Source: a virus
Reading direction: 5' to 3' (one strand)
UHGV virus genome: UHGV-0084069
Length of the DNA: 40,020 bases
In this document: positions 1,058 to 16,166 of the stretch, one piece after another
Layout: the number at the start of each line of letters is the position of its first letter
Numbering within the stretch: the first letter of the stretch is position 1
Made by a program: the position numbers and the translations under genes
Notes under the pieces: generated by a model
What the model was told of the DNA's origin: nothing
Seen by the model: the letters and a program-made list of their open reading frames with translations, nothing else
The model's database searches: none

Positions 1058-1655
1058 TCTGCTGCCACCGGGTTCAACGCCACTGGAGCGCCGACTGGCG
1101 CAAACCTGCAGCGGGATTTCTGATCTGCAGGTGCCGCTGCGTGACTTGTGGAATCCGGCAACCTGTCCGGTCAGTTTCCTGCCTTATCTCGCTTGGGCGT
1201 TCTCTGTGGATCGCTGGGACGAGGGCTGGACAGAAAGCGTCAAACGTCAGGTGGTGAAGGATGCTTTTTATATTCATCAGCATAAAGGAACCACCAGTGC
1301 CGTGCGGCGGGTGGTGGAGCCGTTCGGCTTTCTGATCCGCATTATTGAGTGGTGGCAGACCGGAGAGGCACCGGGCACGTTTCGCCTGGATATCGGCGTG
1401 CAGGACCAGGGCATCACTGAAGATACCTATCTGGAACTTGAGCGGCTGATAAGCGATGCCAAACCATGTAGCCGTCACATGATCGGCATGTCCATCAATC
1501 TGCAGACCAGCGGTCCGCATTGGGTGGGGGCCGCCAGCTATCTTGGCGAAGAAATCACGATCTATCCGTATATCAACGAAACAATTATTTCCGGCGGCAC
1601 CGCGCATGAAGGCGGGGCGGTCCATGTTATTGACACAATGAGAGTGAATCCATGA
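1050..1655 (+). CDS. phage tail protein I (P2 gpI-like baseplate protein)
   Basis: 201-aa ORF overlapping the J stop and the fibre start; position and size fit P2 gpI. Confidence 0.7.
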   Translation: MNSLLPPGSTPLERRLAQTCSGISDLQVPLRDLWNPATCPVSFLPYLAWAFSVDRWDEGWTESVKRQVVKDAFYIHQHKGTTSAVRRVVEPFGFLIRIIEWWQTGEAPGTFRLDIGVQDQGITEDTYLELERLISDAKPCSRHMIGMSINLQTSGPHWVGAASYLGEEITIYPYINETIISGGTAHEGGAVHVIDTMRVNP

Positions 1656-3172
1656 GCACAAAATTTTATACCCTGCTGACGGATATTGGCGCGGCGAAAC
1701 TTGCCAGCGCCGCCGCGCTCGGTGTGCCGCTAAAAATTACCCATATGGCGGTGGGCGATGGCGGCGGAGCATTGCCGACGCCGGACGCAAAGCAGACTGC
1801 ACTGGTAAATGAGAAACGCCGGGCTGCGCTGAATATGCTCTATATCGACCCGCAGAACAGCAGCCAGATTATTGCTGAACAGGTGATCCCTGAAAATGAG
1901 GGTGGTTGGTGGATACGTGAAGTGGGTCTGTTTGATGAGTCCGGGGCATTGATTGCCGTAGGCAACTGCCCGGAAAGCTATAAGCCGCAACTGGCTGAAG
2001 GCAGCGGGCGCACCCAGACCGTGCGCATGGTGTTGATTACCAGCAGCACGGACAATATCACCCTGAAAATCGACCCTGCCGTCGTGCTGGCAACCCGCAA
2101 GTATGTGGATGACAAGGTACTGGAGCTGAAGGTGTTCGTGGATGATAAGATGGCAAAACATCTTGCCGCACCGGACCCGCATTCACAGTATGCACCCAAA
2201 GAAAGCCCGACATTGACCGGAACACCCAAAGCGCCAACGCCAGCGGAGGGGAATAACACCACGCAGATTGCGACCACCGCGTTTGTTCAGGCGGCACTGA
2301 TGGCCCTTATTAATGGTGCGCCAGCCACACTGGATACGCTGAAAGAAATTGCCGCTGCCATTAATAATGACCCGAAATTCAGTACCACCATTAACAATGC
2401 GCTGGCACTGAAAGCGCCGCTGTCAAGTCCGGCACTCACCGGAACGCCAACAGCCCCCACTGCCGCACAGTCGGTTAACAATACACAGATTGCCACTACG
2501 GCTTTTGTGAAATCGGCGATTGCGGCAATGGTGGGTTCTGCACCTGCGGCACTGGATACACTGAACGAACTGGCGGCGGCGCTGGGGAATGACCCGAACT
2601 TTGCCACGACAATGCTTAATGCACTGGCAGGTAAACAACCGCTGGACAATACGCTGACTAATTTGAGTGGAAAGGATGTAGCTGGTCTTCTCGCATACCT
2701 TGGTTTGGGAGAAGGTTCGGCATTACCCGTTGGTGTGCCTGTTCCGTGGCCCTCAGCCACTCCGCCAACAGGCTGGCTAAAATGCAACGGAGCAGCTTTT
2801 TCTGCTGAAGAATACCCGGAACTGGCAAAGGCTTACCCGACAAATAAATTGCCTGATTTACGTGGTGAGTTTATTCGTGGCTGGGATGATGGGAGGGGCG
2901 TTGATAGCGGTCGAGGATTACTTTCGCTCCAAAGTAGTCAAAACTTGTCGCATTCTCACGATGATCTTGGGTCTATGGGGGGGAGAGCGGTTGGTGTCCC
3001 TGGAACAACATCCGTATATGCGAAGAAATATTATGGTTCAAATGAAGGATATCAGACTCGGCCAGCAGGTGGTTGGTCTGGCTCAGCATCAGGATTAACA
3101 TCATTAGAAAGTGGTGGGAATGAATCTCGTCCTCGCAACGTCGCATTTAACTACATCGTGAGGGCCGCATAA
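1652..3172 (+). CDS. tail fibre protein (P2 gpH-like): constant N-terminal part, two tandem shaft repeats, C-terminal tail-collar receptor-binding domain
   Basis: 506-aa ORF; repeated TQIATTAFV fibre motifs; LGLGE hinge at residues 350-354; C-terminal GWLKCNGAAFSAEEYPELAKAYP collar-like motif; followed by a tfa gene. Confidence 0.8.
   Translation: MSTKFYTLLTDIGAAKLASAAALGVPLKITHMAVGDGGGALPTPDAKQTALVNEKRRAALNMLYIDPQNSSQIIAEQVIPENEGGWWIREVGLFDESGALIAVGNCPESYKPQLAEGSGRTQTVRMVLITSSTDNITLKIDPAVVLATRKYVDDKVLELKVFVDDKMAKHLAAPDPHSQYAPKESPTLTGTPKAPTPAEGNNTTQIATTAFVQAALMALINGAPATLDTLKEIAAAINNDPKFSTTINNALALKAPLSSPALTGTPTAPTAAQSVNNTQIATTAFVKSAIAAMVGSAPAALDTLNELAAALGNDPNFATTMLNALAGKQPLDNTLTNLSGKDVAGLLAYLGLGEGSALPVGVPVPWPSATPPTGWLKCNGAAFSAEEYPELAKAYPTNKLPDLRGEFIRGWDDGRGVDSGRGLLSLQSSQNLSHSHDDLGSMGGRAVGVPGTTSVYAKKYYGSNEGYQTRPAGGWSGSASGLTSLESGGNESRPRNVAFNYIVRAA
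2207..2641 (+). repeat. in-frame tandem duplication (~72 codons x2) in the fibre shaft
   Basis: Protein repeats PTLTGTPKAPTPAEGNNTTQIATTAFVQAAL...LALKAPL and PALTGTPTAPTAAQSVNNTQIATTAFVKSAI...LAGKQPL. Confidence 0.6.
2688..2713. other. candidate 26-bp DNA-invertase crossover site (gix/hix/pix-like), left copy
   Basis: TTCTCGCATACC TT GGTTTGGGAGAA: two dyad half-sites around a 2-bp core; covers the LGLGE codons of the fibre gene; inverted copy at 4570-4595. Confidence 0.6.
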
Positions 3173-3774
3173 TGACGCAGGCAAAATTAAACAGTGAGCT
3201 TATTGCCACGGAAGCCGGTGATATTACTGTGTTTAACTACGATGGTGAAACACGGGAGTATATTTCTGCATCAACTGAATATCTTGCTGTGGGTGTCGGT
3301 ATCCCTGCATATTCCTGTTTAGATGCTCCTGGCACCTACAAAGCTGGTTATGCAATCTGCCGTTCTGCAGATTTTAACTCATGGGAATATGTACCAGACC
3401 ATCGCGGTGAAATTGTCTTTAGCACCGAAACAGGAGAATCAAAAGAAATCACAGCTCCGGGTGATTACCCTGAAAATACAACCACTATCGCCCCGTTAAC
3501 GCCATACGATAAATGGGATGGTGAGAAATGGGTGACCGATACTGAGGCACAGCATAGCGCCGCAGTAGAAGCGGCAGAAGCACAGCGCCAGTCACTGATT
3601 GATGCAGCAATGGCTTCCATCAGTCTGATTCAGCTGAAATTGCAGGCCGCACGTAAACTGACGCAGGCAGAAACAACCAGACTTAACGCCGTGCTGGATT
3701 ACATTGACGCGGTGACGGCAACAGATACCAGCACCGCGCCGGATGTCATCTGGCCTGAACTGCCGGAGGCGTAG
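3172..3774 (+). CDS. tail fibre assembly protein (Tfa, P2 gpG / Mu U family)
   Basis: 200-aa ORF with ATG overlapping the fibre stop (TAATG); conserved Tfa C-terminus ...LDYIDAVTATDTSTAPDVIWPELPEA. Confidence 0.8.
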   Translation: MTQAKLNSELIATEAGDITVFNYDGETREYISASTEYLAVGVGIPAYSCLDAPGTYKAGYAICRSADFNSWEYVPDHRGEIVFSTETGESKEITAPGDYPENTTTIAPLTPYDKWDGEKWVTDTEAQHSAAVEAAEAQRQSLIDAAMASISLIQLKLQAARKLTQAETTRLNAVLDYIDAVTATDTSTAPDVIWPELPEA

Positions 3775-4198
3775 GCCATTCAATATCTGGCGCACTGGAG
3801 GTATCAACCAGTTCCAGTGCGTCCAGATAATCCAGCCACAAATTATATTGCGCCAGTTCATCATCTTTCAGACGACCAATAGCGGCTTTACCGGGCCATT
3901 GCTTACTGTTCATGTATTCGTTGGCCTGGTTAATTAGTAGCTGTCTTTCTGATTCAGTAATTTCAATAAGTTCTTCATGCGTGGGTGGAGGAATATCTGC
4001 CCACGCAGGCAGCCCATCATCTCCGGCAATACGGATTTTTCCTTGTGGCGGTTCAGCCATAAACTCACTGATAATATTTTGATTTACTTCCTTAGCGTCT
4101 GATAAATCCCATCCCTCTGATTTATATTTATCAATCATATCCACAGGGAAAAAAGCATTATGCCTTGCGCTATAAACATATTCGTTCATATAAATCAC
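3746..4198 (-). CDS. tail fibre assembly protein (second Tfa, convergent with the first)
   Basis: 150-aa ORF ending ...LDYLDALELVDTSSAPDIEWPTPPAVQAR; its 3' end overlaps the + strand tfa by 29 bp. Confidence 0.8.
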   Translation of the reverse strand: MIYMNEYVYSARHNAFFPVDMIDKYKSEGWDLSDAKEVNQNIISEFMAEPPQGKIRIAGDDGLPAWADIPPPTHEELIEITESERQLLINQANEYMNSKQWPGKAAIGRLKDDELAQYNLWLDYLDALELVDTSSAPDIEWPTPPAVQAR

Positions 4199-4209
4199 CC
4201 TGAATAAAA

Positions 4210-4872
4210 TTACTCACCAACAGCCCACCAACTGTAATTCATCGATACTGTGGAACTGGTTGATGCAGTTCTGTAAGCGGAATTAAAACCGGTTAATGTT
4301 GGGCCTTCTGCGGTCATCACGAATCCCCGCCCAGCACCTAAAGGCGCACCACCATCACCAGAATGAGTAAGCATGGCGCAGTCCACTTTTTTAGGAAAAG
4401 GGATGCTGAATGTAATTCTCATTGTTTGCGTCGATAATGTCGGCGTAACCGCACCACGACCATATTGCAGGATTTTCCCGTTGGGTAATTTCATCCATCC
4501 ATCACCATTGGCAAAAGAGGCCATGTCCGGTATCTGATTTTCCCCTGTCCCCACATCCCGTTTTGCCGCTTCTCCCAAACCAAGGTTTTCGAGAGCCGTT
4601 TTCACCGTGCCATCCGATTTGATATCGCCAAACGGATTCTTGCGGCTTAACAGCAGCGCACGAAGCGCGGTAAGCAACTGGTCGTGCCGCCCCTTCTCCA
4701 GGCTGGCACCGGATGCCTCCACCACGCTGCAGAGTTCTTCCTGCAACATATCAAAGTAGTCATCATCCAGATCGGTGGCAGGCGTGCCAGTCTGGGGGTT
4801 ACCACGGGTAAAACCGTTCTTACCCGCGCCGAACTTATCCTTCTGCGCGGTTTTCGTGTCTATACGATGCAT
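4210..4872 (-). CDS. short tail fibre protein (e14 StfP / Mu S-like): short constant N-terminus plus exchangeable C-terminal domain
   Basis: 220-aa ORF starting 4 nt after the gp48-like gene stop; LGLGE hinge at residues 97-101 coincides with the right crossover site. Confidence 0.75.
4570..4595. other. candidate 26-bp DNA-invertase crossover site (gix/hix/pix-like), right copy, inverted relative to 2688-2713
   Basis: TTCTCCCAAACC AA GGTTTTCGAGAG; resembles hixL TTCTTGAAAACCAAGGTTTTTGATAA (recalled); shares an 18-bp perfect inverted identity CTTCTCCCAAACCAAGGT with the left site. Confidence 0.6.
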
Positions 4873-4875
4873 GGA

Positions 4876-5460
4876 TTACTCCGGATATTTAAAAATTACG
4901 TAGGTATGCGACGGGCAGAGTTTGTTAAGCACACACTCGACAACGGTGTCACCCCAGATACGCAGTGCGGAATCACAGGGATCGCCACATGTCATCCAGG
5001 TGGTGTTGGTGGTGGTTGGCATGTTGACCTGCCAGTAATACCGCCATTCCGGCGCATTCACCGCGTCAGTACAGGCCGATGAGCCGGTGAAGGTGCTTTT
5101 GTCGTATCTCGTGATGGTGGCATCTGGCCTGCCCAGGGCAGCAAGCTGTGCAAGATAAAAATCCTCGTAGATGCCGCCCGCCAGGTTAACCTTCGCATCC
5201 AGCCGTTGCTGACGCTGGCGAAGGGGCTGCGTTCCCGCCGGAATACATTCATCCGGCAGACCGCACAGACGCTCCCAGCGGTTTATCAGTTCAGTGGTGG
5301 TGCGCGGATCCAGCTCCCGCATCAGGGCATCCGCACGCTGATGAACGCGGGTTAATGACGGTGCCGCACCGGCAATCGCCGGATCGCTGGCTGACCACGC
5401 CGGACCGGGTGGCAACAGTGCCGACAACAGACGGATGTAATCATCGTTTGTCACGTCCAT
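4876..5460 (-). CDS. tail protein, Mu gp48 / YmfQ-like (DUF2313 family)
   Basis: 194-aa ORF immediately upstream of the fibre gene; position matches Mu gp48 and e14 YmfQ. Confidence 0.65.
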
Positions 5461-6509
5461 GAAATCGTCCCCAGAACCGCCAGTTCATTTTTCGCAATGG
5501 AGATATTGTCTGCCGGTGCAAGCAACTGATGGCTATATTCCCCGTTCGCACCGGAAATCGCCTCACTGATACGCGATACCTTCAGTTCTCCCTGCGGATA
5601 ACCATCACGCAGAAGAAACGAACGCAACTCCGCGGTGATGGCGGCTCGTATTTCTGGTGTGTCCGGCGTCACGCGGATATGAAAATCCACCGTATGTGCC
5701 ACCGGCCTGAATACATACAAATCAGAGCCTGCCACCGGGGCCAGTGGCACGATATGTTGTCTTGCTGCCGTTTCCGTTGATTCTTCCGGAATGGGATTAA
5801 TCAGGTCACTGCTGGCAATCATCACACCGACAGTTCCCGTTCCCATCCAGTGACGGTATGTCCATGCGCGGGTAATGCCGGGCACTTCTTTAGCCCAGAC
5901 GACATAGTCCCCGTCAGCCCCGCCCTGAGGCGTCCAGTAATACCGCTCAATGACGCGGGCGCGCCACGTTTCCAGCTCTTCAGTATCAAATCCGCCTGTC
6001 AGGGTGTCAGCCACACCGGAAGACGGCAGACCATTCACCGGCGTGACCAGGATTAATGCCGTACCGTCGTCAGCGTTACCGACCGCACCTGCACTTGAGC
6101 AGGCGATCGGCACGCGCAGGACACCACCGGAGCTGGTTGCATCGGCAGTTGCCGTGTACTGAACCAGGTCATCGCGCTGAATAACACTCCCGGCGGTCAC
6201 CTTCAGGCCATCGCTGACACCTTCCCAGCGCATATACCCGCTGGCAGCCGTGGCCCCCTTGCGCGGACACCGTTTCATCGCAGCATGTCGCGCCAGCCAG
6301 AACTCATCGCACAGGTCAGGCAGCATGTTCATTGCCAGATAATCGATGTAACCGTAAACCGTATGCAGCGCCGCCGCATACACCTTTGCCCGCACGTCTT
6401 CATCCATGCGCCGGAGCGTGTCGCTGACGTCCAGCCTGGCGAATAAATCGTTACGGAGCATACTGATATTTTCTGCCAGCGTCGGGCGCTGAAATTCACT
6501 GTCCGCCAT
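5451..6509 (-). CDS. baseplate J-like protein (Mu gp47-like)
   Basis: 352-aa ORF in the Mu-type baseplate block, overlapping its neighbours. Confidence 0.7.
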
Positions 6510-6924
6510 GCGTTATCGCACTCCACAGATCATCAAAAGAAATCATTACCGGTCCGTCACGACGCCACAGAGTGATACTGTTACCCAGTTCATTAATCCC
6601 GGTGCGGCGGATATCCAGATCAATACGGGACACCACGCCGTCATCAATCATCCATTGCAGGCATTCGCGGATATACCCCCTTACCGTCTGCACCAGCTGA
6701 TTGGTCAGTTTGCTGCGCTGAAGCAGCCACAGTCGGGAGCCGTAACAGTCATTCTGTACCGCAGGCCAGGTATCCCCCCACCATCCCATCGGGACGTCGG
6801 CGTTGTCATCAGGCTCCGCCCGCCGCCAGGTAAACAGGGAAATCACCACGGCGCGGGTCAGCGGATCCAGCGGTGCGCTGGCGCAGGTGCGTTTACCGTT
6901 CACCGTCAGCCACAGTTCCATCAT
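6496..6924 (-). CDS. baseplate protein, Mu gp46 / GPW-gp25-like
   Basis: 142-aa ORF between the V-like and J-like genes. Confidence 0.6.
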   Translation of the reverse strand: MMELWLTVNGKRTCASAPLDPLTRAVVISLFTWRRAEPDDNADVPMGWWGDTWPAVQNDCYGSRLWLLQRSKLTNQLVQTVRGYIRECLQWMIDDGVVSRIDLDIRRTGINELGNSITLWRRDGPVMISFDDLWSAITHGGQ

Positions 6925-7469
6925 GCCTCCATCGCTTTATCAGGTTTGTCGGTGTTACTGCCATGACCGTTCTCTCTGTGACGATGCCCGTTATAGGCAA
7001 GCCGCATCGCTGACATGGTGGTACCGCCGGAGTCGCACAGGTCTTTCACCTGTCCGGTCACTTCCAGGTCCATTTCAAAACGTGCTCTGGGCGCATTGCG
7101 AAACGTGATCGTTTTACCTGCACCGTCCACCACGATCCCCTCCCGGGTCAGCGTCACAGACTGCCCCTGATCGTCATAGACAGCCACCTCACCCGTCTGC
7201 AGCCCTTTCAGGCGGTAGCGCCGGTCCGACACCGTAACAACCACCGCATGAGAACGGTCGCCATCCGGAAACAACACCACCGCTTCCGCACCGCTGTTTG
7301 CCCTTGCGGTAAAACCGTAGGGTTCAAGATGTTCAACCCCGGCTTTGGGTTCACCGGCAATCAGGGACACATCCACGGTCTGACATTTCGTGGCGGCACT
7401 GATGCTTTTCACCACTGCCCGCCCAATCAGGCCGAGAAGTTGTCGCTGCATGGCTTCAATCGTCCTCAT
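6921..7469 (-). CDS. baseplate assembly protein V / spike (Mu gp45-like)
   Basis: 182-aa ORF, position-conserved in the Mu tail module. Confidence 0.6.
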   Translation of the reverse strand: MRTIEAMQRQLLGLIGRAVVKSISAATKCQTVDVSLIAGEPKAGVEHLEPYGFTARANSGAEAVVLFPDGDRSHAVVVTVSDRRYRLKGLQTGEVAVYDDQGQSVTLTREGIVVDGAGKTITFRNAPRARFEMDLEVTGQVKDLCDSGGTTMSAMRLAYNGHRHRENGHGSNTDKPDKAMEA

Positions 7470-8548
7470 CAGAACGGGTCCTCCTGTACTCTGGCTTTTT
7501 TCTTTTTCCGCGCGCCGGGGGCTTCGGGTTCAGGCAGATAAGCATCAGGTGGGCCGACACGGATTTCCGTCAGGGTGCCATTCTGGTCCTGAGTAAACGT
7601 GACTTCCGAGACAAGCAGTTCGGTATTGTCGAAACCACAGACCGGATCGAAGACAATCACCCGCTGGTTGGGCTGCCACAGCGTACCGTTACCCTGTCGC
7701 CAGCCCTGCACCACATAGGTGGTTTCATCCGTCCGCGCCGCCCGTTGTCGGGCTTCAAAGTCAGCACGCGCAATACAGCCTGCCCCCGTAGCCTGCCCTG
7801 TCTGCCTGATATACATCGGACGGTAACGGGCAATAAATGCGTCCTCTGTGCGGGCCCGCAGCGCAGTTGTGGTGGCCTCACCGAAATCATCGTCGTTTCC
7901 GGCACGCTGCCCCGCCACCTGGTAAACAGAAAACCGCTCCCGGATACTCTTCTCCGTATCGCAGGAAAGGATGTTTTCCCCGAGTACCAGCGCGGTATGT
8001 GCCCGCGTTGAGCCAATACCGCCAATCACCAGCCTGCCGTGCGGGTCGTCATAAGCCAGCGCCTGCTGCTGACCGAGTATTTTGTTAATCACCTCGATCA
8101 CCGTTTCACCGTGATCAGGCTGGACATCAGGAATAACACCCGACGGCGCACCGCTGTTCACCACCTCAATGCCGAAGGGCGCAGCAAGCGCCTGCGCAAT
8201 CTGTACCAGTGATCGTCCGTTAAACTGTGTCGGTTCAGCTGCACAATCAATCAGGTCAGCGGTCAGACTGCGTCCGGCAATACCGGTGCTGACCGAACGG
8301 GCATCGTAACGAACGGGCGTCGCCTCCACCCAGCCGGTGATCACCAGCTCATCACCAATCAGCACCTCCACTTTTGAACCGTTTTTAATGCGCGGCTGAA
8401 GCGTGGTGATACCCTCATCACCCGGCCACTGGCGGGTGATCTCCACACTGAAATCCCGCGCCAGTCGTTCAACACCGGCACCGATGCGCACCGATGTCCA
8501 GCCATTCCACTCCCGGCCATTTACCCGTAGCGTGACATTGTCGTTCAT
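7469..8548 (-). CDS. baseplate hub protein (Mu gp44 / P-like)
   Basis: 359-aa ORF following the DNA-circularisation-like gene. Confidence 0.55.
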   Translation of the reverse strand: MNDNVTLRVNGREWNGWTSVRIGAGVERLARDFSVEITRQWPGDEGITTLQPRIKNGSKVEVLIGDELVITGWVEATPVRYDARSVSTGIAGRSLTADLIDCAAEPTQFNGRSLVQIAQALAAPFGIEVVNSGAPSGVIPDVQPDHGETVIEVINKILGQQQALAYDDPHGRLVIGGIGSTRAHTALVLGENILSCDTEKSIRERFSVYQVAGQRAGNDDDFGEATTTALRARTEDAFIARYRPMYIRQTGQATGAGCIARADFEARQRAARTDETTYVVQGWRQGNGTLWQPNQRVIVFDPVCGFDNTELLVSEVTFTQDQNGTLTEIRVGPPDAYLPEPEAPGARKKKKARVQEDPF

Positions 8549-9915
8549 TGCACTGGCACCTTCAGAGGGATCACCGGCACAAAGCCGGGATGCGTAATGG
8601 CATTACGCCGGATAATGTCCGCATCACGCGCCGCGTTATCAAACCAGGTCGCCGCCAGCACCAGCGCGGGTAAAACCTCATCCGGTGTGCGCTGAATGAT
8701 CCGTGCAGACTGTTCAAGGCGCGTGTTGATATCCGCATTCAGATCTGCTTTCACCCGGCGCAGTGCCAGAAACAGCGCATCACTGGTTGTACGGGACAAC
8801 TCCTTATCAATTGCCGTATTCAGTGTGTCGCGAATGTCAGTCAGTTCTTCCCACGTTGGCAGGTCAACCGTGTTTTTCACCGCCGGTGCATTGTTCAGTG
8901 CCGGATGCGTGACGGAAGGCCAGCCAGTGCTCTGCGCAGGTGTTGTTGACTGCCCCACTGCGGCATTCTGCATCACCGCGGAAGTTGTTGGCGCAGGCAA
9001 TCGGGTGACGGCATACGCCGCTTCGCTGATTGCGGTCGTACGAAGGGTACTGGCAACCTCGTTACGCTGATGCGTCGCCGTGGCGGTGGTTTTACTGTCC
9101 GTTTTCCAGACGCCGCGCGGTTGCAGATCGCTGCCGAGGCTGACACCGGAAAGCGTTTTGATCATGGTGACCAGGTCGCTGGCGTTACCATAAAGGCGTT
9201 TCCCGGTACGCCACATTTTCTGCACCTGCTCAACGAAATTTTTGCCTGACGATGGTGGCGGCAGAAGTACCGAGATATCCCCCTGCAACAGCCTGGCGGC
9301 ATCCGATACGGCAGAATCCACCACTTTCATCGCATCAGAAACATACCCAAGCATTGTGCTGGCATTACCGACGACGTCGTTCTGCACAAAATCTGCCACG
9401 CCATCGATACTGAAACCACTGAAGCTGTCACTGATGCAGTCATCCAGTGCAGAACAGGATGACATCAGCGTCTGCGCCGTCGCCGCACCTGAAGTGGGGT
9501 AAGAGAGTTCTCCCGCTTCGACAAACTTCAGGTCAAAGCGGACAATACGCCCTTCACTCTTCGATGTGCTGACCCGAACTTCCCCGTCAACACAGACTTT
9601 CAGCTCACCGTAAGTCGGATGGACAAGCGTGCCGGGACCGGGTTTATTCAGCGCGTCAATCAGGCGATCGCGCTGGTCAAAGCAGTCATCTCCCACCACA
9701 TAAGCTGTGATGGACGGGCGGAAAGTGATTTTCCCCAGGTCTTCGGTATAGGGTTTGTCGCGGTTCGGGTATTCGTGCGTTTCCACACGACGACCGGTTC
9801 CCGCACTTTCTTCTTCAACCTTAAACGGCACACCGCGAAATGACGCGTCCTGAAGTCTGTCTTTCCACGTCATATAAACTCCGTACATAAAAAATCCCAC
9901 CGGAGTGGGACTCAT
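8545..9915 (-). CDS. Mu gp43 (N)-like DNA circularisation / tail protein
   Basis: 456-aa ORF directly downstream of the tape measure gene. Confidence 0.55.
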   Translation of the reverse strand: MSPTPVGFFMYGVYMTWKDRLQDASFRGVPFKVEEESAGTGRRVETHEYPNRDKPYTEDLGKITFRPSITAYVVGDDCFDQRDRLIDALNKPGPGTLVHPTYGELKVCVDGEVRVSTSKSEGRIVRFDLKFVEAGELSYPTSGAATAQTLMSSCSALDDCISDSFSGFSIDGVADFVQNDVVGNASTMLGYVSDAMKVVDSAVSDAARLLQGDISVLLPPPSSGKNFVEQVQKMWRTGKRLYGNASDLVTMIKTLSGVSLGSDLQPRGVWKTDSKTTATATHQRNEVASTLRTTAISEAAYAVTRLPAPTTSAVMQNAAVGQSTTPAQSTGWPSVTHPALNNAPAVKNTVDLPTWEELTDIRDTLNTAIDKELSRTTSDALFLALRRVKADLNADINTRLEQSARIIQRTPDEVLPALVLAATWFDNAARDADIIRRNAITHPGFVPVIPLKVPVQ

Positions 9916-9933: not shown

Positions 9934-11769
9934 TTACCTGCCAAAGCGCGTATAGCCAACATCATGGCTGACATCAAAACCGCTGGATCGCGTTTCCATA
10001 ACCCGCATACCCGGAGGCGAATTCATAAAAGAGACCTTGATCTCACCATCAACTTTTGGCGCAGAAGCTTTGTTAATCATGAAGGGATTCGGGCCTGTGG
10101 CACCGGAGGCGTTGTTTGACTGAGCCGGATCTACCGCCGGATAAGGTGTGTATCCCCGCGCCGGTATTCCCGTCCCATAAGCATCATAAGCACCCGCGCC
10201 CCACTGCGCAGAGTTAATGGCATCGACCGTGTCACCGGAACTGTCGGTAAACCACTCAATAATTGGCTTCAGCTTGTCCCACATATCCTGAAACCACTTA
10301 ACAACCGGCCCCCAGTTATTGATCACCATCCCCAGCGGCGACCAGGCAAAAACTTTCTTAAGGAGTTCCCAGCCAGCCTCAAAATAAGGACCAATGGTTT
10401 CCCAGAGTTTCTTAAAATAAGGTCCGACAACATCCCAGTTAGTGATAATTAATCCCGCAGCCAGGGCTATCGCCGTCGCAATCATGCCAATCGGCGTCAT
10501 CGACATGATCCTGCTGACAATACTGATGGCACCGCCAACGCCCATCAATCCCAGTTTCAGAATCGCAAGACCGGCAGCAAGCCCGACGACGCCGCGAATA
10601 ACCCGGGGATTTTCATCCGCAAACTTCGTGAATTTTTCCCCCAACTCCCCCAGCCATTGCGTGATATTTTTAGCGTCACCAGAAAATGCGCCGCCAATAG
10701 CTGCAAGACCGTTAGTTGCGGTCCCCGTCATTGCCTCCCACAGGTTGGACAGCGTACCAAGCTGGGCCTGAACACGTTTATTCAGGCTGGCCTGTTTATT
10801 CATCTTCTGCTGGATCTGATCGTAGCCATCCTTTCCTTTATCGATCAGAGCATTGACCACCTGAAGGGTTTCGGCATCATCACCAAATATTGCCTTAAGT
10901 ACACCGGTTCGCTTAACGTCGGTCAGTTTTCGCAGCTTTGCCAGTTGCCTGAACATGTTATCAAGACCGCCAAAACTCCCTTTGCCATCAGTAAAATCGA
11001 GCTGTACCCCGAGTTTCTGGCGGGCCATGATTTTATTGACGTCCCTGATTTTCTTAACGCTTAATCCGGACTGGATAACTTTTCGCAGGGCATTACCTGC
11101 CGACTCCCCGTTCATCCCCATCTGATCCATCATGACACTGATGGGGGCAAGACTCTGTGCAGCCTGAAGACCGTCCTTATTCACCATCTTCAGAACAGAG
11201 CTGGTTTTAGTGAAGAATGACAGCATGTTGGTGTCGTCAACGCCCAGATAAAACGCCTTCTGAATTGTGTCGAACAGCCCCATCATGTCTTCTGAGGCCG
11301 TTCCGGTAGCATCCTGCATCTTTGCGGCAAACTCGGCAGCCGCTTCCGGTGTTTTTTTCAGTTGTACCGCAAGATAAGCTGTCGCTTTACCCACACCACC
11401 CAGAATGTTTTCTGCCGGGATCCCCTGACGCACCAGCATCTGCATCATGTTCTGGAAATCAGCCGTTGTACCGGGTAGCTGGTTACCCAGGCCAATAGCC
11501 AGTTTATTGATGTCCTGAAAGCTCTTTCCAACCTCGCCGTTCGCATCCATCATGGCGACTTTCAGCCCGGTAGCGGCGTTTTCCTGATCGGCATAAGATT
11601 TCAGGGAAAGCGTCAGCCCCGCTGCCAGTCCGCCACCAAGCGCCAGCCCACCCTGTGACGCCTCTTCCGCCTGGCGTTTAAATCCCCGGATTTTCTTTTG
11701 CATTTTCGACAGCGCGGGAGAAAGCCTGTCGACACCGGTGATCAACGCCTTAAGCTCAAATTCAGCCAT
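9934..11769 (-). CDS. tail tape measure protein
   Basis: 611-aa ORF with a Gly/Ala-rich hydrophobic central region and coiled-coil N-terminus; preceded by the chaperone frameshift pair. Confidence 0.75.
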   Translation of the reverse strand: MAEFELKALITGVDRLSPALSKMQKKIRGFKRQAEEASQGGLALGGGLAAGLTLSLKSYADQENAATGLKVAMMDANGEVGKSFQDINKLAIGLGNQLPGTTADFQNMMQMLVRQGIPAENILGGVGKATAYLAVQLKKTPEAAAEFAAKMQDATGTASEDMMGLFDTIQKAFYLGVDDTNMLSFFTKTSSVLKMVNKDGLQAAQSLAPISVMMDQMGMNGESAGNALRKVIQSGLSVKKIRDVNKIMARQKLGVQLDFTDGKGSFGGLDNMFRQLAKLRKLTDVKRTGVLKAIFGDDAETLQVVNALIDKGKDGYDQIQQKMNKQASLNKRVQAQLGTLSNLWEAMTGTATNGLAAIGGAFSGDAKNITQWLGELGEKFTKFADENPRVIRGVVGLAAGLAILKLGLMGVGGAISIVSRIMSMTPIGMIATAIALAAGLIITNWDVVGPYFKKLWETIGPYFEAGWELLKKVFAWSPLGMVINNWGPVVKWFQDMWDKLKPIIEWFTDSSGDTVDAINSAQWGAGAYDAYGTGIPARGYTPYPAVDPAQSNNASGATGPNPFMINKASAPKVDGEIKVSFMNSPPGMRVMETRSSGFDVSHDVGYTRFGR

Positions 11770-11944
11770 GTGTGCGTTTCTCCTGCTCTATCCTGTTTGC
11801 CTGACTGACCAGCAAGGGAATTTCACTGATCGGCATATTCAGCAATTCGAAGGGATTAATGCGCCAGTAGCTGGCGCAGTCAAAGAAGCGATCAGTGAGG
11901 TATTCAGCCGTCAGGCCTGGAGGAAAAAACCAGCCACAAGCCAC
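11762..11944 (-). CDS. -1 frame extension of the tail assembly chaperone (frameshift product C-terminus)
   Basis: ORF in the -1 frame overlapping the chaperone 3' end across slippery TTTTTTC; ends at the tape measure start. Confidence 0.45.
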   Translation of the reverse strand: MACGWFFPPGLTAEYLTDRFFDCASYWRINPFELLNMPISEIPLLVSQANRIEQEKRTHG

Positions 11945-12180
11945 GCCGCTGCATTCAGGTCTGCCGGAGACATCTGGTCGACAGAGCTTTGCGGCACTTT
12001 CGCCAGCCGCACAATGTATTTCGACACCACATGCGCCAGAAGTCTGACGGACTCATCCTGATTCATCTGGTAGGGATACCCCAGCTCGCGAACATCCTTC
12101 CCGGTGGGTTCATCAAACTCCAGTACGGAGAGTGTCTCACCATGAGCGATAATCGGTTTCTTTAACTCAAGCTCTTTCAT
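11911..12180 (-). CDS. tail assembly chaperone (Mu gp41 / lambda G-like)
   Basis: 89-aa ORF between the tube and tape measure genes; ends ...WLVAGFFLQA across a slippery heptamer. Confidence 0.55.
   Translation of the reverse strand: MKELELKKPIIAHGETLSVLEFDEPTGKDVRELGYPYQMNQDESVRLLAHVVSKYIVRLAKVPQSSVDQMSPADLNAAAWLVAGFFLQA
11923..11929 (-). other. candidate -1 programmed ribosomal frameshift slippery heptamer (T TTT TTC on the coding strand)
   Basis: + strand GAAAAAA, i.e. G-GTT-TTT-TCC in the chaperone frame, 5 codons before its stop. Confidence 0.45.
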
Positions 12181-12536
12181 TACTGGTAATCCCCTTCTTC
12201 ACCGTGGAACTCAAGATCAACCGTCCCTTCTTCGGCATTATGGTTCGCTTCTCCGTGCAGCCAGGCGGACGACAATACATAGACCTGACCGTTCGCCAGC
12301 TCGGCAGTGATGGTCATCTCATCAGACGAGGTGATTTTGTTCACCGGAAAATTCTTCGGCACCTTGAAGGTCCCTTTGACATAAGGCGCACGGTGAGTTT
12401 CCTTGCGGTCCACTGAACCGTCCAGGCCGATGATGTCATCATTGACCGTCCTGTTCATGGGCACCTCAATGCCGCCGGTCAGCGATAGCTGCTGACCGTC
12501 AATTTTGAAATAACAGGTTCCCCCGATACGGGCCAT
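12180..12536 (-). CDS. contractile tail tube protein (Mu gpM-like)
   Basis: 118-aa ORF immediately after the sheath gene. Confidence 0.7.
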   Translation of the reverse strand: MARIGGTCYFKIDGQQLSLTGGIEVPMNRTVNDDIIGLDGSVDRKETHRAPYVKGTFKVPKNFPVNKITSSDEMTITAELANGQVYVLSSAWLHGEANHNAEEGTVDLEFHGEEGDYQ

Positions 12537-14032
12537 TATGCAGACTCCTCTGAATACTGAAGACGGAACTGGTTAACCACGGCAAAAACACGCAACTGGT
12601 TAACATAGTCAGGCGGGAACAGCGTGTTCAGGCGGTTCGGATCGCTGGCATCACGCTCCACAACCAGGTACTGCTTAAACAGTTCGTAGTTTTCCACGAT
12701 CCCCGCACGCTCAAGCTGACGGTAGGTTGCCAGCAGTTCCCCTTTGATTACCGCCGGGGTGACAATCGCCTGACCGGGACCAAAGCGGGTACCGTCGCTG
12801 GCAAGCTTGTGACGCCCGTACTTACTGGTAATGACGGATTTCAGTTTGCGCAGTACATACGCGCTGGTATGCAGCGTCTCGCTGTCGAGGTAGCTGTTAT
12901 CCGCAACACCGTAAGCATTTTTCCTGTACGTGGTGACATCACGCTGAATGCGCAGCACCCCGCTTTCGACATACGCCGTTGCCACGCCATGAGACAGCAG
13001 GGTCTGCTGCTCGGTCATCGTGAACCGTTTCCCCTTCGGCGCAGGCAACATACCTACCAGCTCACCGGTCTGCGTGGGACGTGCCGGATCGTTGCGGATA
13101 AACACCGCTGCGCGGGCGGTACGGCTTGCCGCCAGCTCGTCGGCAGGCGTCTGGGTCTCTTTTTCGTACCCCGCCAGGGTGATGTGCTGCTGGTTAAACT
13201 GGTCACCTGCGTTCACCAGTTCTGACAGTGTGCCGGTCTTTGCCGTATACACATGACCATACAACTGACGCGCATAGCTCCAGCGACCGCTGGTATCGTT
13301 CATCTCGGTCACCAGCGTGTTAACGGAGGCCGTGTCGTTGAACGGCAGACCGATATAATCAAACGGCTCATCCGCCATTGCAGCCACCGCGCCGGTGAGA
13401 ACCGGAGCGCCCGTTCCGGCGGTCCCCGTCGCCACGGCAATCTGTACGCCCGCTGGCAGCACTTCGCCCCCACCGAAGCCGTAGTAATTGAGGCTGACAG
13501 GAATTTCATTCCCGCAAAGCCCCTTATGACGCGCGGTCAGCGTGACAACACCAGCCGAAGATGAAGCTGTAAACGGCAGAGTCGGAACGGCATTGATGGC
13601 ATCTTTGATACTGCTGGCAATCGTCGTGACGTTATCGCCGTTGGTCACCGGAGCCTGCACGCGGGTACGTCCCACATAGACATTCACCGTGCCGCTTTCG
13701 GTTGCTTCCCCGGTCACCGTCAGCGTAACCGTTGCCGCCGCGCCTGTGGCTTCCGGAACGGCAATCACATACAGCTCACCAAACGGGTCGGTCTGGCGAT
13801 AAGCCTCGACCATACGCGCCAGCTGACTTCCCGCACCACAAATCTGGCGTGCATAGTCTGCCGACGGCATCAGCACCAGACTGTTGGCAACAATCTCTGC
13901 ACCGTTATTGGCATGACCAATCAGCAGCGATGCTCCGCTGTCCTGTGCAGTATTCGCCGCCTGGTTATCCATTTCCGCATAAAACAGCGGAACCAGCGTA
14001 TTCGACGGAATGGTGTTAAAGCTTATCGTCAT
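12536..14032 (-). CDS. contractile tail sheath protein (Mu gpL-like)
   Basis: 498-aa ORF (MTISFNTIPS...) followed by the tube gene. Confidence 0.8.
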   Translation of the reverse strand: MTISFNTIPSNTLVPLFYAEMDNQAANTAQDSGASLLIGHANNGAEIVANSLVLMPSADYARQICGAGSQLARMVEAYRQTDPFGELYVIAVPEATGAAATVTLTVTGEATESGTVNVYVGRTRVQAPVTNGDNVTTIASSIKDAINAVPTLPFTASSSAGVVTLTARHKGLCGNEIPVSLNYYGFGGGEVLPAGVQIAVATGTAGTGAPVLTGAVAAMADEPFDYIGLPFNDTASVNTLVTEMNDTSGRWSYARQLYGHVYTAKTGTLSELVNAGDQFNQQHITLAGYEKETQTPADELAASRTARAAVFIRNDPARPTQTGELVGMLPAPKGKRFTMTEQQTLLSHGVATAYVESGVLRIQRDVTTYRKNAYGVADNSYLDSETLHTSAYVLRKLKSVITSKYGRHKLASDGTRFGPGQAIVTPAVIKGELLATYRQLERAGIVENYELFKQYLVVERDASDPNRLNTLFPPDYVNQLRVFAVVNQFRLQYSEESA

Positions 14033-14186
14033 CGGTGTTCACCTTTTTATTCACGCGCCGGATATCACCCGCTGCTTCACGGCGCAGCCAGTAGTTGTTC
14101 TCGTCAACATTTCGCCCTTCGGTGGGCAAAAGGTCACCGCGGGCAGGGTCAGGCACTGACCGCCCTTTAACAGGTTTCACAAACAT
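14016..14186 (-). CDS. small hypothetical protein upstream of the sheath gene
   Basis: ATG at 14186 (MFVKPVKGRSVPDPARGDLLPTEGRNVDENNYW...); its stop overlaps the sheath start; below the 60-aa track cutoff. Confidence 0.3.
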   Translation of the reverse strand: MFVKPVKGRSVPDPARGDLLPTEGRNVDENNYWLRREAAGDIRRVNKKVNTDDDKL

Positions 14187-14194
14187 GAAGATTC

Positions 14195-14755
14195 TCAGGA
14201 AGGAAGGGTTATTTCGGTGTGATGTTCGATATCGCCGTCAGGCCCGTTACCGGGATCGAGATAATCAACATCAATCGCCAGCGTTCGCAGTTCATCCAGA
14301 CTGTTCAGGTCATCCTGCTGGCGGGTATCGTCTTCGGTCAGCTCGCTGATGACCGAAAAATCGAACTGATAAATCAGCTCATGACGATTCAGATCCAGCA
14401 GCGTGCCGCCGTCATAGGTAATCGGGTTACCGCACGCTTCCGGGTTCCAGCCCAGCAGGGCCTTAAAGAGCATCTGCCGGACATCGTCCACCACATCATA
14501 CGAGGTAAACTGACCGCGCTCATCACGCCCGTTACTCAGTATGACAACCACGGAGAAACCCTCTTTCAGCTCCTGCCAGTAGTCGGTCTGGCTTTTGTTT
14601 TCTCCCGGAGAATCATCACCCGGTACAACATATGCCGCCGGGAGTTTCAGCTTTCCGACCTCCGGCAGATTTTTGAACTGGGCCGCGCCTGCAACCCGGT
14701 TTTCAAAATACGGACAGCGGGCACGCAGTGCAGCAATAACAGGCGTCAGTTTCAT
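14195..14755 (-). CDS. virion structural protein (Mu gp37-like; tail terminator / sheath stabiliser candidate)
   Basis: 186-aa ORF between head-tail joining genes and the sheath. Confidence 0.45.
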   Translation of the reverse strand: MKLTPVIAALRARCPYFENRVAGAAQFKNLPEVGKLKLPAAYVVPGDDSPGENKSQTDYWQELKEGFSVVVILSNGRDERGQFTSYDVVDDVRQMLFKALLGWNPEACGNPITYDGGTLLDLNRHELIYQFDFSVISELTEDDTRQQDDLNSLDELRTLAIDVDYLDPGNGPDGDIEHHTEITLPS

Positions 14756-15258
14756 CTGTGTCGTCGCTCCGGCTTCAGTGATTTACGCAATTCCCGCGCC
14801 AGAAAATAGCGTGTCCAGCTGCGGTTCTTTTCAAGCGTTTCCACCATGAAGTTATTACGTGGAGCCAGTCGCCAGCCGCTGCCACCGGATGCACCACGAT
14901 GATGGCTGCGACGACGCTTTGCCCCTCGCCTCACGCCATAGAACAAAAAAGCCGGATAAAAATCACCGGTGATACGGCGGTTTCCCTCTCCATTACGCTG
15001 GTTAGGGGCTATACGTGCCATAAAACCAGGACGATGTTTACTGGCTCTGGGTACCATGTAACCAATCGAACGAGCCAGGCGTCCGGTCTGATAACCGGGG
15101 TTTTCACCCGGTGCCGACCGCGCACGGCGCATCACCAGCCGACGGGCATCACGCATATGACGCTGACCAATCGTGACAAACGCCCGCCGGACACGGGCGC
15201 GGTTAAAGCGCATCTCCGCGGGCTGCTGAAAATCAACGTGCAAAAAGGAAGTCGCCAT
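14752..15258 (-). CDS. head-tail joining protein (HK97 gp10-like candidate), Arg-rich
   Basis: 168-aa ORF in the head-tail connector block. Confidence 0.45.
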   Translation of the reverse strand: MATSFLHVDFQQPAEMRFNRARVRRAFVTIGQRHMRDARRLVMRRARSAPGENPGYQTGRLARSIGYMVPRASKHRPGFMARIAPNQRNGEGNRRITGDFYPAFLFYGVRRGAKRRRSHHRGASGGSGWRLAPRNNFMVETLEKNRSWTRYFLARELRKSLKPERRHR

Positions 15259-15643
15259 TGTTGCCTCCGTGACTCTGCGTAAATTCGCCCAGCTCCGTAC
15301 ACTCCAGCAGCAGAAAGCGCCGCGCCCCGTTCAGATCACGCTGACGTTTCACCCGGTACACACTGTCACCGCAGACCACCTCATAATCAGCGGTGATCCC
15401 CCGGCGGTAGCGAATGGTGATGTAATGGGTGATGGCGTCTCCGGTCTGCGCGGTTTCCTGCCAGGTAGTGGCACTGGTCTGGACAACCTTCGCCCATGCC
15501 CGGAACGCAACCGGATATTGAGGCTCCACGCCAAAGTTATCCGCGGGCATATCCACCCGCTGGCGGATCAGGACGCGTTTATTCAGTTCGCCGGGGTCCG
15601 GCAGAATGTAGGTTGCGCTGGTCTGCGCCTGACGAATTTTCAT
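15233..15643 (-). CDS. head closure / head-tail adaptor protein
   Basis: 136-aa ORF downstream of the gp6-like connector gene. Confidence 0.5.
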   Translation of the reverse strand: MKIRQAQTSATYILPDPGELNKRVLIRQRVDMPADNFGVEPQYPVAFRAWAKVVQTSATTWQETAQTGDAITHYITIRYRRGITADYEVVCGDSVYRVKRQRDLNGARRFLLLECTELGEFTQSHGGNNGDFLFAR

Positions 15644-15963
15644 TGCGGAAAGTACCTGTACGGGCCGACAAGCCAGCTAAAACTCTGCGGCATGTCGAGT
15701 TTCTCCACTTCCGTAACCGAAGAGCGGTTTTCGTAAAAATGGCTGATAAGCATCAGCATCCCCAGACGAATATCATCCGGCAGGTGCAGCCCGTCCGGAT
15801 CGCTGTCCGGAATGGTTTCATCCGGTGCATAGAGCTTCCGGTTCAGATACGTTTCCGTCCGCTTTTGCGCCGCACAGGCCAGCAGTTGCAGATGGCGGTC
15901 ATCAGCATCGAAATCCTCATCCAGCCGGAGTTGGGCTTTAATCTCTTCCATTGTCAGAAGCAT
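15640..15963 (-). CDS. head-tail connector protein (gp6-like)
   Basis: 107-aa ORF downstream of the major capsid gene. Confidence 0.55.
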   Translation of the reverse strand: MLLTMEEIKAQLRLDEDFDADDRHLQLLACAAQKRTETYLNRKLYAPDETIPDSDPDGLHLPDDIRLGMLMLISHFYENRSSVTEVEKLDMPQSFSWLVGPYRYFPQ

Positions 15964-15965
15964 AC

Positions 15966-16166
15966 TCAGCCCTCTTTACTGGTCGTGGCTTTTTTCTCTT
16001 TTGCCGCTTTACTGCTTTTTGCACTGGTTCCGCGCTCTGCTAACCCGGCCTGAAGTGCAATCTCCTGCACCCGGGCAGGAAGCGCCCCGTCGTCATACTC
16101 ACCGGCCCGAATGACCTCAACACGCATACCGTCCGGTGACCATTTCAGATCTTGTTTCAGGATCAT
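15966..16166 (-). CDS. small hypothetical head-module protein
   Basis: 66-aa ORF between the capsid and connector genes. Confidence 0.35.
   Translation of the reverse strand: MILKQDLKWSPDGMRVEVIRAGEYDDGALPARVQEIALQAGLAERGTSAKSSKAAKEKKATTSKEG

Follow-up and report, generated by a model that had tools for sequence, protein, structure and literature searches.

An e14-type invertible tail-fibre segment with the fibre gene of a P2-like prophage in the place of its invertase gene

The DNA analyzed here, UHGV virus genome UHGV-0084069, is a stretch of 40,020 nucleotides (the window) that corresponds to contig NODE_277, with 6.6x coverage, of an ENA metagenome assembly (ERZ772937). The contig starts inside P2 gene W and carries just 2.7 kb of P2-type sequence, next to a full-length e14-like prophage of ~37 kb (Table 1). 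Positions 1-2714 were 99.96% identical in DNA to the P2-like prophage of MS 57-2, which is intact and has its own segment, a 188-aa recombinase and a sheath gene. Positions 4560-6238 were 97.4% identical to ymfQ-stfP in the stfP-ymfQ-jayE flank of K-12 e14, and the baseplate genes at 4876-9915 were 99.7-99.99% identical to those of the e14-like prophages L022-L025. In other genomes, the neighbors of the integrase gene are genes of the Aldedh, AA_kinase and porin types; we take these to be proA-proB-phoE. These assignments bear out the proposal of a first-pass annotation that the constant fibre parts on the two sides come from different tail modules, the left one being of P2-type J/I/H and the right one of the Mu/e14-type gp44-gp48 baseplate.

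Table 1. Coordinates of the features of the window and the basis of their assignment
Feature	Position	Strand	Basis
P2-type baseplate protein J, 302 aa	149..1057	+	Pfam Baseplate_J_N/M/C
P2-type tail protein I, 201 aa	1050..1655	+	PF09684 Tail_P2_I
Constant N-terminal part of P2-type fibre H, aa 1-349	1652..2699	+	PF12571 Phage_tail_fib
Left crossover site	2688-2713	+	TTCTCGCATACC TT GGTTTGGGAGAA; core 2700-2701
Variable receptor-binding part, Collar domain (aa 355-506 of 506-aa fibre)	2714..3172	+	PF07484 Collar
Tail-fibre assembly chaperone for Collar cassette, 200 aa (tfa200)	3172..3774	+	PF28596 + PF02413 Caudo_TAP
Tail-fibre assembly chaperone for Gp53-like cassette, 147 aa as called	3746..4189	-	PF02413 Caudo_TAP
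Variable receptor-binding part, Gp53-like_C (aa 102-220 of 220-aa fibre)	4210..4569	-	PF21882
Right crossover site	4570-4595	+	TTCTCCCAAACC AA GGTTTTCGAGAG; core 4582-4583
Constant N-terminal part of e14-type fibre StfP, aa 1-96	4596..4872	-	97.4% DNA identity to K-12 e14
e14/Mu-type baseplate genes: gp48/YmfQ, gp47/J, gp46, gp45, gp44/P, DNA circulation protein	4876..9915	-	Pfam
Rest of e14-like prophage: tape measure, tube, sheath, HK97-type head, lysis, lambdoid early region	9934..40020	-	ORF list, annotation of homologous FDAARGOS_1287 region, Pfam families
Integrase	38857-40020	+	Within e14-like prophage remainder

The interval between the two sites holds two convergent cassettes, each consisting of a receptor-binding part (Collar or Gp53-like_C) followed by a Caudo_TAP chaperone gene; the chaperone of the Gp53-like cassette would be 150 aa long if started at the GTG at 4198. 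Pfam domains thus support the earlier description of two convergent receptor-domain and tfa cassettes in ~1.9 kb. Flipping 2701-4582 in silico yielded in-frame proteins of 473 aa and 253 aa, each followed by the matching tfa gene, as expected from the claim that inversion would swap the fibre tips in frame. Neither the exact tfa200 protein nor the 506-aa protein is known from any other contig, and exact look-ups of the 220-aa fibre and of tfa200 gave no informative second context. The same Collar cassette was found fused to at least 5 different P2 H variants.

Direct reading and a repeat search both recovered the two inverted 26-bp sites with 18 bp of perfect identity that had been described. 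The perfect inverted stretch joins 2697-2714 to 4569-4586, and among inverted repeats within the first 9 kb the site pair ranks first in length, its arms (2689-2714 and 4569-4594) being complementary at 24/26 positions. The proposed layout of dyad half-sites around a 2-bp core was also seen, in the form 12+2+12, with half-sites TTCTCGCATACC / TTCTCCCAAACC in the left site and TTCTCCCAAACC / CTCTCGAAAACC in the right site. The cores match, since the left one is TT and the right one, AA on the + strand, reads TT when inverted. When the right site was used as a query with up to 3 mismatches, exactly these 2 sites were recovered in 40 kb and 0 in 100 shuffles; the analytic expectation for a comparable pair is ~5e-4. 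Even when up to 7 mismatches to the chosen consensus were allowed, a search detected no third crossover site in the 40-kb window. Both sites lie, as had been noted, on the LGLGE codons of the fibre genes, at residues 350-354 of the 506-aa protein (nt 2699-2713) and residues 97-101 of the 220-aa protein (nt 4584-4570). The left site has an outer half, GGTATGCGAGAA, of the P2-H type and an inner half common to all sites, and does not differ from the site on the H side of the inversion system in the intact P2-like prophage of MS 57-2. The right site matches the pix site inside stfP (ycfK) of K-12 e14 at 26/26 positions.

The e14 element of K-12 contains the invertible P segment, with pix sites and the invertase PinE (Plasterk and van de Putte 1985, as cited in PMC4272514), and its inversion has been documented by whole-genome sequencing and PCR (PMC4272514). 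Like the P segment, the window has the StfP constant part, a site, two convergent fibre-tip and tfa cassettes, and a second site. Among near-identical e14-like prophages, the segment has the window's orientation in L022 and the flipped orientation in L023, L024, L025, L027 and L031, and the 253-aa flipped fibre, with the Collar part on the e14 StfP constant part, was found exactly in 22 contigs. The 473-aa flipped P2 fibre H predicted for the window was absent from the public sequence collection searched. Both orientations therefore exist for the segment in near-identical e14-like prophages, but not, in that collection, for the window's two-constant context. Together with the 26/26 pix match and the presence of pin in cis in the flipping relatives, these data uphold the Gin/Hin/Pin type first suggested, and the interval is an ordinary e14-type Pin/Gin-family invertible tail-fibre segment.

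No serine recombinase was detected in the 40-kb window by tblastn with PinE and the P2 invertase or by blastn with their DNA, in agreement with the earlier remark that an invertase gene is absent. Typical e14-like prophages have pinE immediately to the left of the corresponding site, an order seen in thousands of E. coli genomes; an invertase gene adjoins that site in L003, L004, L022-L025, L031 and L032, and in L022 it is a Resolvase gene at the left site. In the window, the place of pinE is taken by the P2 fibre part, and in two closed genomes described below both invertases sit at the reciprocal joint. The missing invertase is thus explained by displacement. In the Hin system the enhancer lies ~100 bp from a site (PMC3798978), and on the Hin/Gin model the Pin enhancer is probably inside pin. 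Because the window contains no pin or other invertase DNA, an enhancer placed as in Hin cannot be present. With the enhancer presumably gone together with the invertase gene, inversion of the segment in the window's context may be much less efficient. The P segment of e14 is also flipped in trans by PinQ, a Pin-family invertase that belongs to another prophage, Qin (PMC12529663).

That a fibre gene from a second prophage, of the P2-like type, stands in place of the invertase gene points to a rare inter-prophage rearrangement or to a metagenome mis-join. The homologies to the P2-like (MS 57-2) and e14-like (L022) references overlap in 2700-2714 only, and the overlap starts with the core dinucleotide at 2700-2701. 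Positions 2700-13000 align to L022 (CP070393.1) at 99.74% identity without gaps, the match beginning at the core TT (2700). Mismatches to otherwise near-identical e14-like relatives are distributed unevenly, with 25 in 2700-3802, in two patches, and 2 in 3803-13000; between the patches, 2837-3362 is identical to these relatives, and 3803-4569 also shows 100% DNA identity to them. The P2-H constant part is joined to other C-termini in the intact P2-like prophages of MS 57-2 (473-aa H) and L032. The native segment of L032 is ~98.4% identical to that of the window, with identical stretches of ~500 nt, and homology to L032 ends exactly at 4583. A simple mosaic of e14-type and P2-type reference segments was considered for the segment and rejected, as 15/45 variable positions are private to the window.

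With moderate confidence, we favor the explanation that the window is the "double-constant" joint left by a large inversion that involved the inversion systems of two prophages. Under this explanation, an e14-like prophage whose left site normally abuts pin would have acquired the H constant part of a P2-like prophage at that position, through recombination between crossover sites of two prophages in one chromosome by one of their invertases. The serine invertases of the two prophage types were 85% identical in two representative copies. Exchange at the central dinucleotide between the P2 H-side site and the e14-like pin-side site would invert all DNA between them and leave the order H-constant, segment, StfP-constant in the window, with a "double-invertase" joint of pin, segment and P2 invertase elsewhere. 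The meeting of the homologies at the core suggests that an invertase rather than RecA made the joint. Both fibre genes would then be expressed from their own late operons, so that both cassettes would be in use at once; both prophages would probably no longer be able to excise, and local flipping would now be rare because the invertase and enhancer are remote.

The same linkage was found in closed E. coli genomes. FDAARGOS_1287 carries the P2-H/segment/e14-StfP joint at ~83.2-85.0 kb and a reciprocal joint of sheath, P2-recombinase, segment and pinE at ~130.3-132.3 kb, which corresponds to an inter-prophage inversion of 45-49 kb. In bR_120_Kylling, an equivalent pair of joints connects two P2-like prophages ~95 kb apart. 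Both invertase genes were located at the other joint in both genomes. The reciprocal joint of FDAARGOS_1287 was found by reading the neighboring annotation; a query composed of pinE, the MS 57-2 P2 segment, the invertase and the sheath gene covered the pinE end in no genome, because one P2 segment type dominated the query. An adjacency query for int, spacer and ogr found no un-inverted relatives of FDAARGOS_1287.

An assembly artefact is the alternative with the greatest weight, although we consider it less probable than the inter-prophage inversion. Here, an intact P2-like and an intact e14-like prophage with near-identical segment copies would have been present in one strain or in mixed strains, and a short-read assembler would have run from the P2 H gene through the shared segment into the e14 flank. 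The low coverage of a contig that begins within gene W, the native ~98.4% segment of L032 with its ~500-nt identical stretches, and the tfa200 and 506-aa proteins seen on this contig alone are all consistent with such a mis-join, as is the tendency of draft assemblies of the relatives (L027-L030) to break at the segment. Near-perfect e14-like identity starts only at 3803, and the private alleles of the left cassette could be those of a P2 copy. Three observations argue in the opposite direction: the exact match of 2837-3362 to e14-like relatives, the existence of the same linkage with reciprocal joints in two closed genomes, and, if the P2 partner resembles MS 57-2, the mere 15 nt of exact sequence common to the P2 H-side site of such a segment and the e14 pin-side site. 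Such a length is below the usual k-mer sizes of assemblers.

Several further observations weigh against the inter-prophage inversion as the origin of the window. Since P2-like prophages can natively carry a ~98.4% segment and the Collar cassette occurs on at least 5 H variants, each joint alone is normal; what is unusual is the linkage across 1.9 kb, and short reads could mis-link two such copies. The split in mismatches at 3803 fits a join within the segment (~3803-3925) at least as well. The joint is rare, with 1/5,426 closed genomes containing the P2-H/e14-StfP junction, and the contig combines low coverage with a short P2 part. If the P2-like prophage occupied ybjL, as it does in MS 57-2, with the e14-like prophage beside proA, the sites would presumably be ~0.57 Mb apart on the K-12 map, a long distance for an invertase that depends on an enhancer and on supercoiling.

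Distance would be no obstacle to RecA-dependent homologous recombination between the segment cassettes, which could produce a real large inversion that does not involve an invertase acting at the 26-bp sites. Homologous inversions from one prophage to another are known from E. coli O157, P2-like and e14-like segments are up to ~98% identical over 1-2 kb, and a change of partner inside the segment would fit the contrast between 25 mismatches in the left part and 2 in the right. We nonetheless judge this route improbable. With the nearest relatives as reference, the P2 homology gives way to the e14 homology inside the site, and the e14-like relatives of FDAARGOS_1287 show a single unbroken match to it that begins at the site or core and covers the full segment. 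Further, because the identical stretch 2837-3362 lies between the mismatch patches, a single crossover fails to explain the mosaic.

The first-pass annotation had favored a purpose-built architecture, in which a dedicated switch with its invertase encoded elsewhere exchanges the determinants of host range between two tail modules. In favor of such a switch, the two sites are intact and their cores match, the reading frame is kept at either end of the swap, and Pin-family invertases act in trans (PMC12529663). The architecture is contradicted by the normal presence of pinE at this position, by the intact state elsewhere of the prophage to which the P2 part belongs, and by the reciprocal joints in closed genomes. 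Each half is a piece of a prophage that exists in complete form elsewhere, and the arrangement occurs in a single closed genome of the thousands surveyed. Both prophages are split, so neither module is part of an excisable phage, and the lack of a nearby invertase gene presumably means that there is no enhancer. We therefore regard a dedicated switch as very improbable.

Compared with known systems, the window differs from K-12 e14, which is a remnant, in containing a full-length prophage, and in lacking both pinE and the pin-side outer half-site (CGTTTATGAAAA in K-12), in place of which it has the P2-type H part and outer half. Invertible fibre segments are also known in P2-like prophages, as in EPEC E2348/69 (PMC4272514). 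The latter strain was considered as clean proof of an active P2-H site and set aside, as its matching prophage is rearranged at a quasi-site instead. Like the P2-like systems, the window has the left site and H constant part of MS 57-2, and the L032 segment is practically the same, with the same bounding cores. In MS 57-2 and L032, the far site precedes genes for a 186-188-aa recombinase and the sheath, whereas in the window it adjoins an opposite-strand StfP constant part. The 26-bp sites with two 12-bp half-sites and a 2-bp core, and the in-frame swap of a fibre C-terminus plus chaperones, are shared with Mu G/Gin, P1 C/Cin and Salmonella H/Hin, and homology places the relatives' invertases (Resolvase + HTH_7) in the same serine invertase family as Gin, Cin and Hin. 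Unlike these systems, which have one constant part and an adjacent invertase gene holding the Fis enhancer, the window has two constant parts, no invertase gene and presumably no enhancer.

Multiple-inversion systems include Min of p15B and a three-site P2-like "shufflon" in EPEC (PMC4272514). FDAARGOS_1287 and bR_120_Kylling resemble these in having more than two compatible sites, with four sites on two prophages forming one network. In contrast to the clustered sites of Min and the shufflon, the extra sites reside in another prophage, at a distance of 45-95 kb or more, and their pairing splits both prophages. Inversion or "translocation" of fibre genes among co-resident prophages has been described in ST131 (bioRxiv 10.1101/2022.05.07.487787). 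That work and the PinQ study show that the invertases and sites of different prophages cross-react within one cell, and that fibre segments pass from P2-like prophages to those with Mu-type fibre genes or the reverse; neither paper contains reciprocal double-constant/double-invertase joints or large inversions at crossover sites. A literature search, with most subscription journals outside it, found no paper on invertase-made inversions between prophages.

Tentatively, we hypothesize that the Gin/Pin-type sites of co-resident prophages form a single recombination network in which two inversions exchange host-range segments. A first inversion would let one segment complete the fibre genes of two unrelated tail machines simultaneously, while the reciprocal joint takes up both invertases; a second, at the two sites still unpaired, would rebuild the two prophages, each now with the host-range segment of the other. 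If true, this two-step process would be a natural recombinase-mediated cassette exchange, and would explain why a core-bounded cassette occurs on P2-like and e14-like prophages and on several P2 H variants. The joint in the window, if real, would be an intermediate of host-range cassette exchange between unrelated temperate phages, and would indicate that prophage invertases can make large chromosomal inversions (45-95 kb in the closed genomes), by which two prophages are broken apart and should become unable to excise. These possibilities bear on the horizontal spread of tail-fibre genes, on structural variation in E. coli and on "orphan" invertible segments detected in scans. As a practical matter, fibre segments common to several prophages are spots where short-read and metagenome assemblies may join unrelated elements.

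Direct reading of the sequence, a repeat search and shuffling all bore out the pair of inverted sites described in the first-pass annotation. The two sites are complementary at 24 of 26 positions and form the longest inverted repeat detected by a repeat search of the first 9 kb. When the right site was used as a query with up to three mismatches, only two places in 40 kb were matched, both being the sites themselves, and none in 100 shuffles; the analytic expectation for the pair is ~5e-4. Each site covers the codons CTT GGT TTG GGA GAA (LGLGE), which encode residues 350-354 in the 506-aa fibre and 97-101 in the 220-aa fibre, as had been proposed. The two convergent cassettes of receptor tip and chaperone were found between the sites, and in silico inversion of 2701-4582 produced fibres of 473 and 253 aa, both in frame, in agreement with the predicted swap. 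The reported absence of an invertase gene was confirmed, as neither tblastn with two invertase proteins nor blastn with the corresponding genes gave a match in the window. Assignment to the Gin/Hin/Pin type also held, on the layout and matching cores of both sites and the flipping of the same segment in sister prophages. In the Gin/Hin/Cin/Pin class the invertase gene is adjacent to a site, whereas the segment in the window has no adjacent invertase, most likely because of a secondary rearrangement.

Features of the window, with sites as read directly from the sequence
Feature	Position	Strand	Detail
Left site	2688-2713		TTCTCGCATACC TT GGTTTGGGAGAA
Right site	4570-4595		TTCTCCCAAACC AA GGTTTTCGAGAG
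Collar-domain fibre tip and 200-aa Caudo_TAP chaperone	between sites	+	
Gp53-like_C tip and 147-aa chaperone	between sites	-	
Bor lipoprotein gene	22677-23018	+	opposite late genes
Gram-negative porin gene	24732-25874	+	opposite late genes; PF00267, E = 4e-153

All close relatives of the window are E. coli prophages. From 2697/2700 onward, the right-hand 37 kb of the window matches a single prophage type present in thousands of E. coli genomes, with a Mu-like baseplate (gp44-gp48/YmfQ), a contractile tail, an HK97-type head and a lambdoid early region. Sequence comparison identifies this type as a full-length relative of e14, a cryptic prophage of K-12: window 4560-6238 is 97.4% identical to e14, and the right site is identical at 26 of 26 positions to the site within K-12 stfP/ycfK. 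In typical e14-like members pinE (184 aa) directly adjoins the left site, whereas the window has the constant part of the P2 fibre gene H there. Near-identical prophages were retrieved by exact-protein look-up with the YmfQ-like protein as the query. One of these, L022 (CP070393.1), is 99.74% identical to window 2700-13000 without gaps; its match begins at the core TT, and a Resolvase gene occupies the place of the window's P2 DNA. The segment is inverted relative to the same flanks in the relatives L023, L024, L025, L027 and L031, and the exact sequence of the predicted flipped 253-aa fibre is present in 22 contigs. Therefore, the segment flips naturally with pin in cis. Inversion of the K-12 P segment has been documented experimentally (PMC4272514), and the switch itself is this e14 P segment, an already known member of the Gin/Hin/Cin/Pin class. 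Several draft and metagenome contigs of the same e14-like prophage (L027-L030) stop within a few hundred bases past the stfP-side site, as assemblies commonly do where a segment is repeated or actively inverting; the window's contig runs through.

The left end of the window has a different source. Window 1-2714 is 99.96% identical, with one mismatch, to an intact P2-like prophage of E. coli MS 57-2, whose H constant part bears a site identical to the left site. After this site MS 57-2 has another, different invertible segment, then a 188-aa recombinase, the sheath and tube genes and further genes as far as ogr, next to ybjL; the window instead carries the e14-type segment and no recombinase. 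Homology to P2 (1-2714) and to e14 (2700 onward) coincides solely in TTGGTTTGGGAGAAG, which starts with the core dinucleotide, and the left site is of P2-H type in its outer half and of e14 type from the core onward. Gin/Hin/Pin-family invertases cut at the central dinucleotide and swap half-sites; PinE and the P2 invertase are 85% identical. A second intact P2-like prophage, L032, matches window 1-4583, ending exactly at the right-site core, and has its own recombinase and sheath genes after the segment. Thus, the segment is a core-bounded cassette common to two unrelated prophage families. At least five different P2 H variants carry the Collar tip of this segment. A 768-aa Salmonella Typhi protein (P0029), named "Gifsy-2 prophage tail fiber protein" in its source, shares 96% identity with the window's 506-aa fibre across 84% of its length, a similarity that suggests circulation of the same fibre parts outside E. 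coli.

A composite query of both constant parts was run against 5,426 closed E. coli genomes. Linkage of P2 H, segment and e14 StfP was found in one, FDAARGOS_1287, where a P2-like left half (int to H) meets a convergent e14-like prophage via one segment. Approximately 45 kb onward lie the inverted P2 right half (ogr to sheath, with the P2 recombinase), a second segment, pinE and ssrA, and inverting 45-49 kb between the outer or inner site pair yields two intact prophages in tandem. The match of its e14-like relatives extends in one piece from the site/core across the whole segment; therefore, P2 gives way to e14 at the site in this genome. At its double-constant joint, the inner half of the stfP-side site (L001 24515-24540) is a different one, TGCTCTTAAACC; the annotation treats stfP as a pseudogene and calls a 79-aa Gp53-like ORF separately. 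The e14 fibre of this strain may therefore be broken.

A query for the reciprocal double-invertase joint retrieved the closed genome of bR_120_Kylling. Here one segment, between ybjL and pflB, separates two P2-like right halves that point towards each other, and ~95 kb off the two left halves do the same across another segment in the order H, tfa, tfa, H, with four of four sites intact. These reciprocal double-constant and double-invertase joints imply an inversion of ~95 kb between crossover sites. The joints lie at ~2,140,639-2,144,399 (L033) and 2,236,721-2,239,848 (L034) of NZ_CP182374.1, and the P2-like prophages sit at ybjL and between pflA and pflB. A TIR-domain protein, WP_000549631.1, whose gene may serve anti-phage defence, is cargo shared by MS 57-2 (L004 2608-3225) and bR_120_Kylling (L034 6436-7053); the P2-like lineage carrying it is the one that matches the window's left end.

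Cross-prophage pairing, giving reciprocal double-constant and double-invertase joints through inversions of 45-95 kb, was thus seen in 2 of 5,426 closed genomes with probes restricted to these prophage types. From these joints, the window has the architecture of one of the two reciprocal products of an inter-prophage inversion, and its invertase is "missing" because both invertase genes land at the other joint. The dedicated switch between two tail modules put forward in the first-pass annotation was not sustained, since closed genomes show reciprocal inversion products, and we consider it very improbable. The pairing of crossover sites from different prophages is the less familiar element. 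Trans-acting Pin invertases (PMC12529663), three-site shufflons in P2-like prophages (PMC4272514) and an undissected fibre-gene "translocation" among co-resident ST131 prophages (bioRxiv 10.1101/2022.05.07.487787) have been reported; no description of the reciprocal joint pair was found in the literature searched. The P2-like prophage of EPEC E2348/69 (L036, NC_011601.1, 869,238-880,943) lacks the invertible segment, and its block hyp-V-W-J-I-H(constant) is in reverse orientation. At both new joints, one half of a native crossover site is connected through a TA core to one half of a quasi-site; the quasi-site, reconstructed as TTCCAAGTAACC TA CGTTTAGCATAA, lies at the 3' end of gene S. The arrangement resembles the outcome of an aberrant invertase reaction at a secondary site.

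In the proposed mechanism, either invertase would pair the P2 H-side site with the e14 pin-side site and invert the DNA between them. Both fibre genes would then be complete, each with a chaperone, so that both cassettes would be in use at once, and both prophages would be split and unable to excise. A local flip of 2714-4569 would be chemically possible with invertase in trans, and flipping of the e14 segment by a Pin-family invertase of another prophage has been described (PMC12529663). This invertase family needs a Fis-bound enhancer, which in Hin lies ~100 bp off one site (PMC3798978); local flipping is probably rare because the enhancer would now be remote. Two successive inter-prophage inversions may exchange host-range segments between unrelated prophages, with the window as an intermediate.

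Whether the joint in the window is itself real and made at the sites we judge to be evenly balanced. The window makes up nucleotides 1-40,020 of contig NODE_277 (46,268 nt, coverage 6.6x) in the ENA metagenome assembly ERZ772937. An assembly mis-join is possible, if doubtful: the contig is of low coverage, with just 2.7 kb of P2 sequence at its start. Each joint is normal by itself because P2-like prophages can natively carry a ~98% identical segment. The unusual feature is solely the linkage of the two joints over 1.9 kb, and short reads cannot bridge identical stretches of ~500 nt. The mismatches to near-identical e14-like relatives number 2 in 3803-13000 and 25, in two patches, in the left cassette. 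Patch 2752-2836 holds six changes in the fibre tip, all synonymous; patch 3363-3802 holds 19 in the C-terminal half of the chaperone and is closer to the K-12 and O157 tfaE type. Across the segment, 15 of 45 variable positions are private to the window, and the exact 200-aa chaperone is unique to it in the public collection. Gene conversion, sequence from the P2 partner or path switching by the assembler could each account for the patches. A change from P2 to e14 near 3803-3925, by RecA or the assembler, fits this pattern at least as well as a left-site switch plus gene conversion. In favour of a real joint made at the sites, 2837-3362 is identical to the e14-like relatives, FDAARGOS_1287 switches at the site, and the MS 57-2-type P2 site and the pin-side site have just 15 nt in common. 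A RecA-made inversion is in our view unlikely. The window's e14-like integrase belongs to a locus that we read as proA; were the P2-like prophage at ybjL, as in MS 57-2, the inversion would span ~0.57 Mb, estimated on the K-12 map. Such a span is long for a supercoil-dependent invertase and counts against a site-made joint.

Further along the e14-like part of the window, the porin and Bor genes look like lysogenic-conversion cargo.
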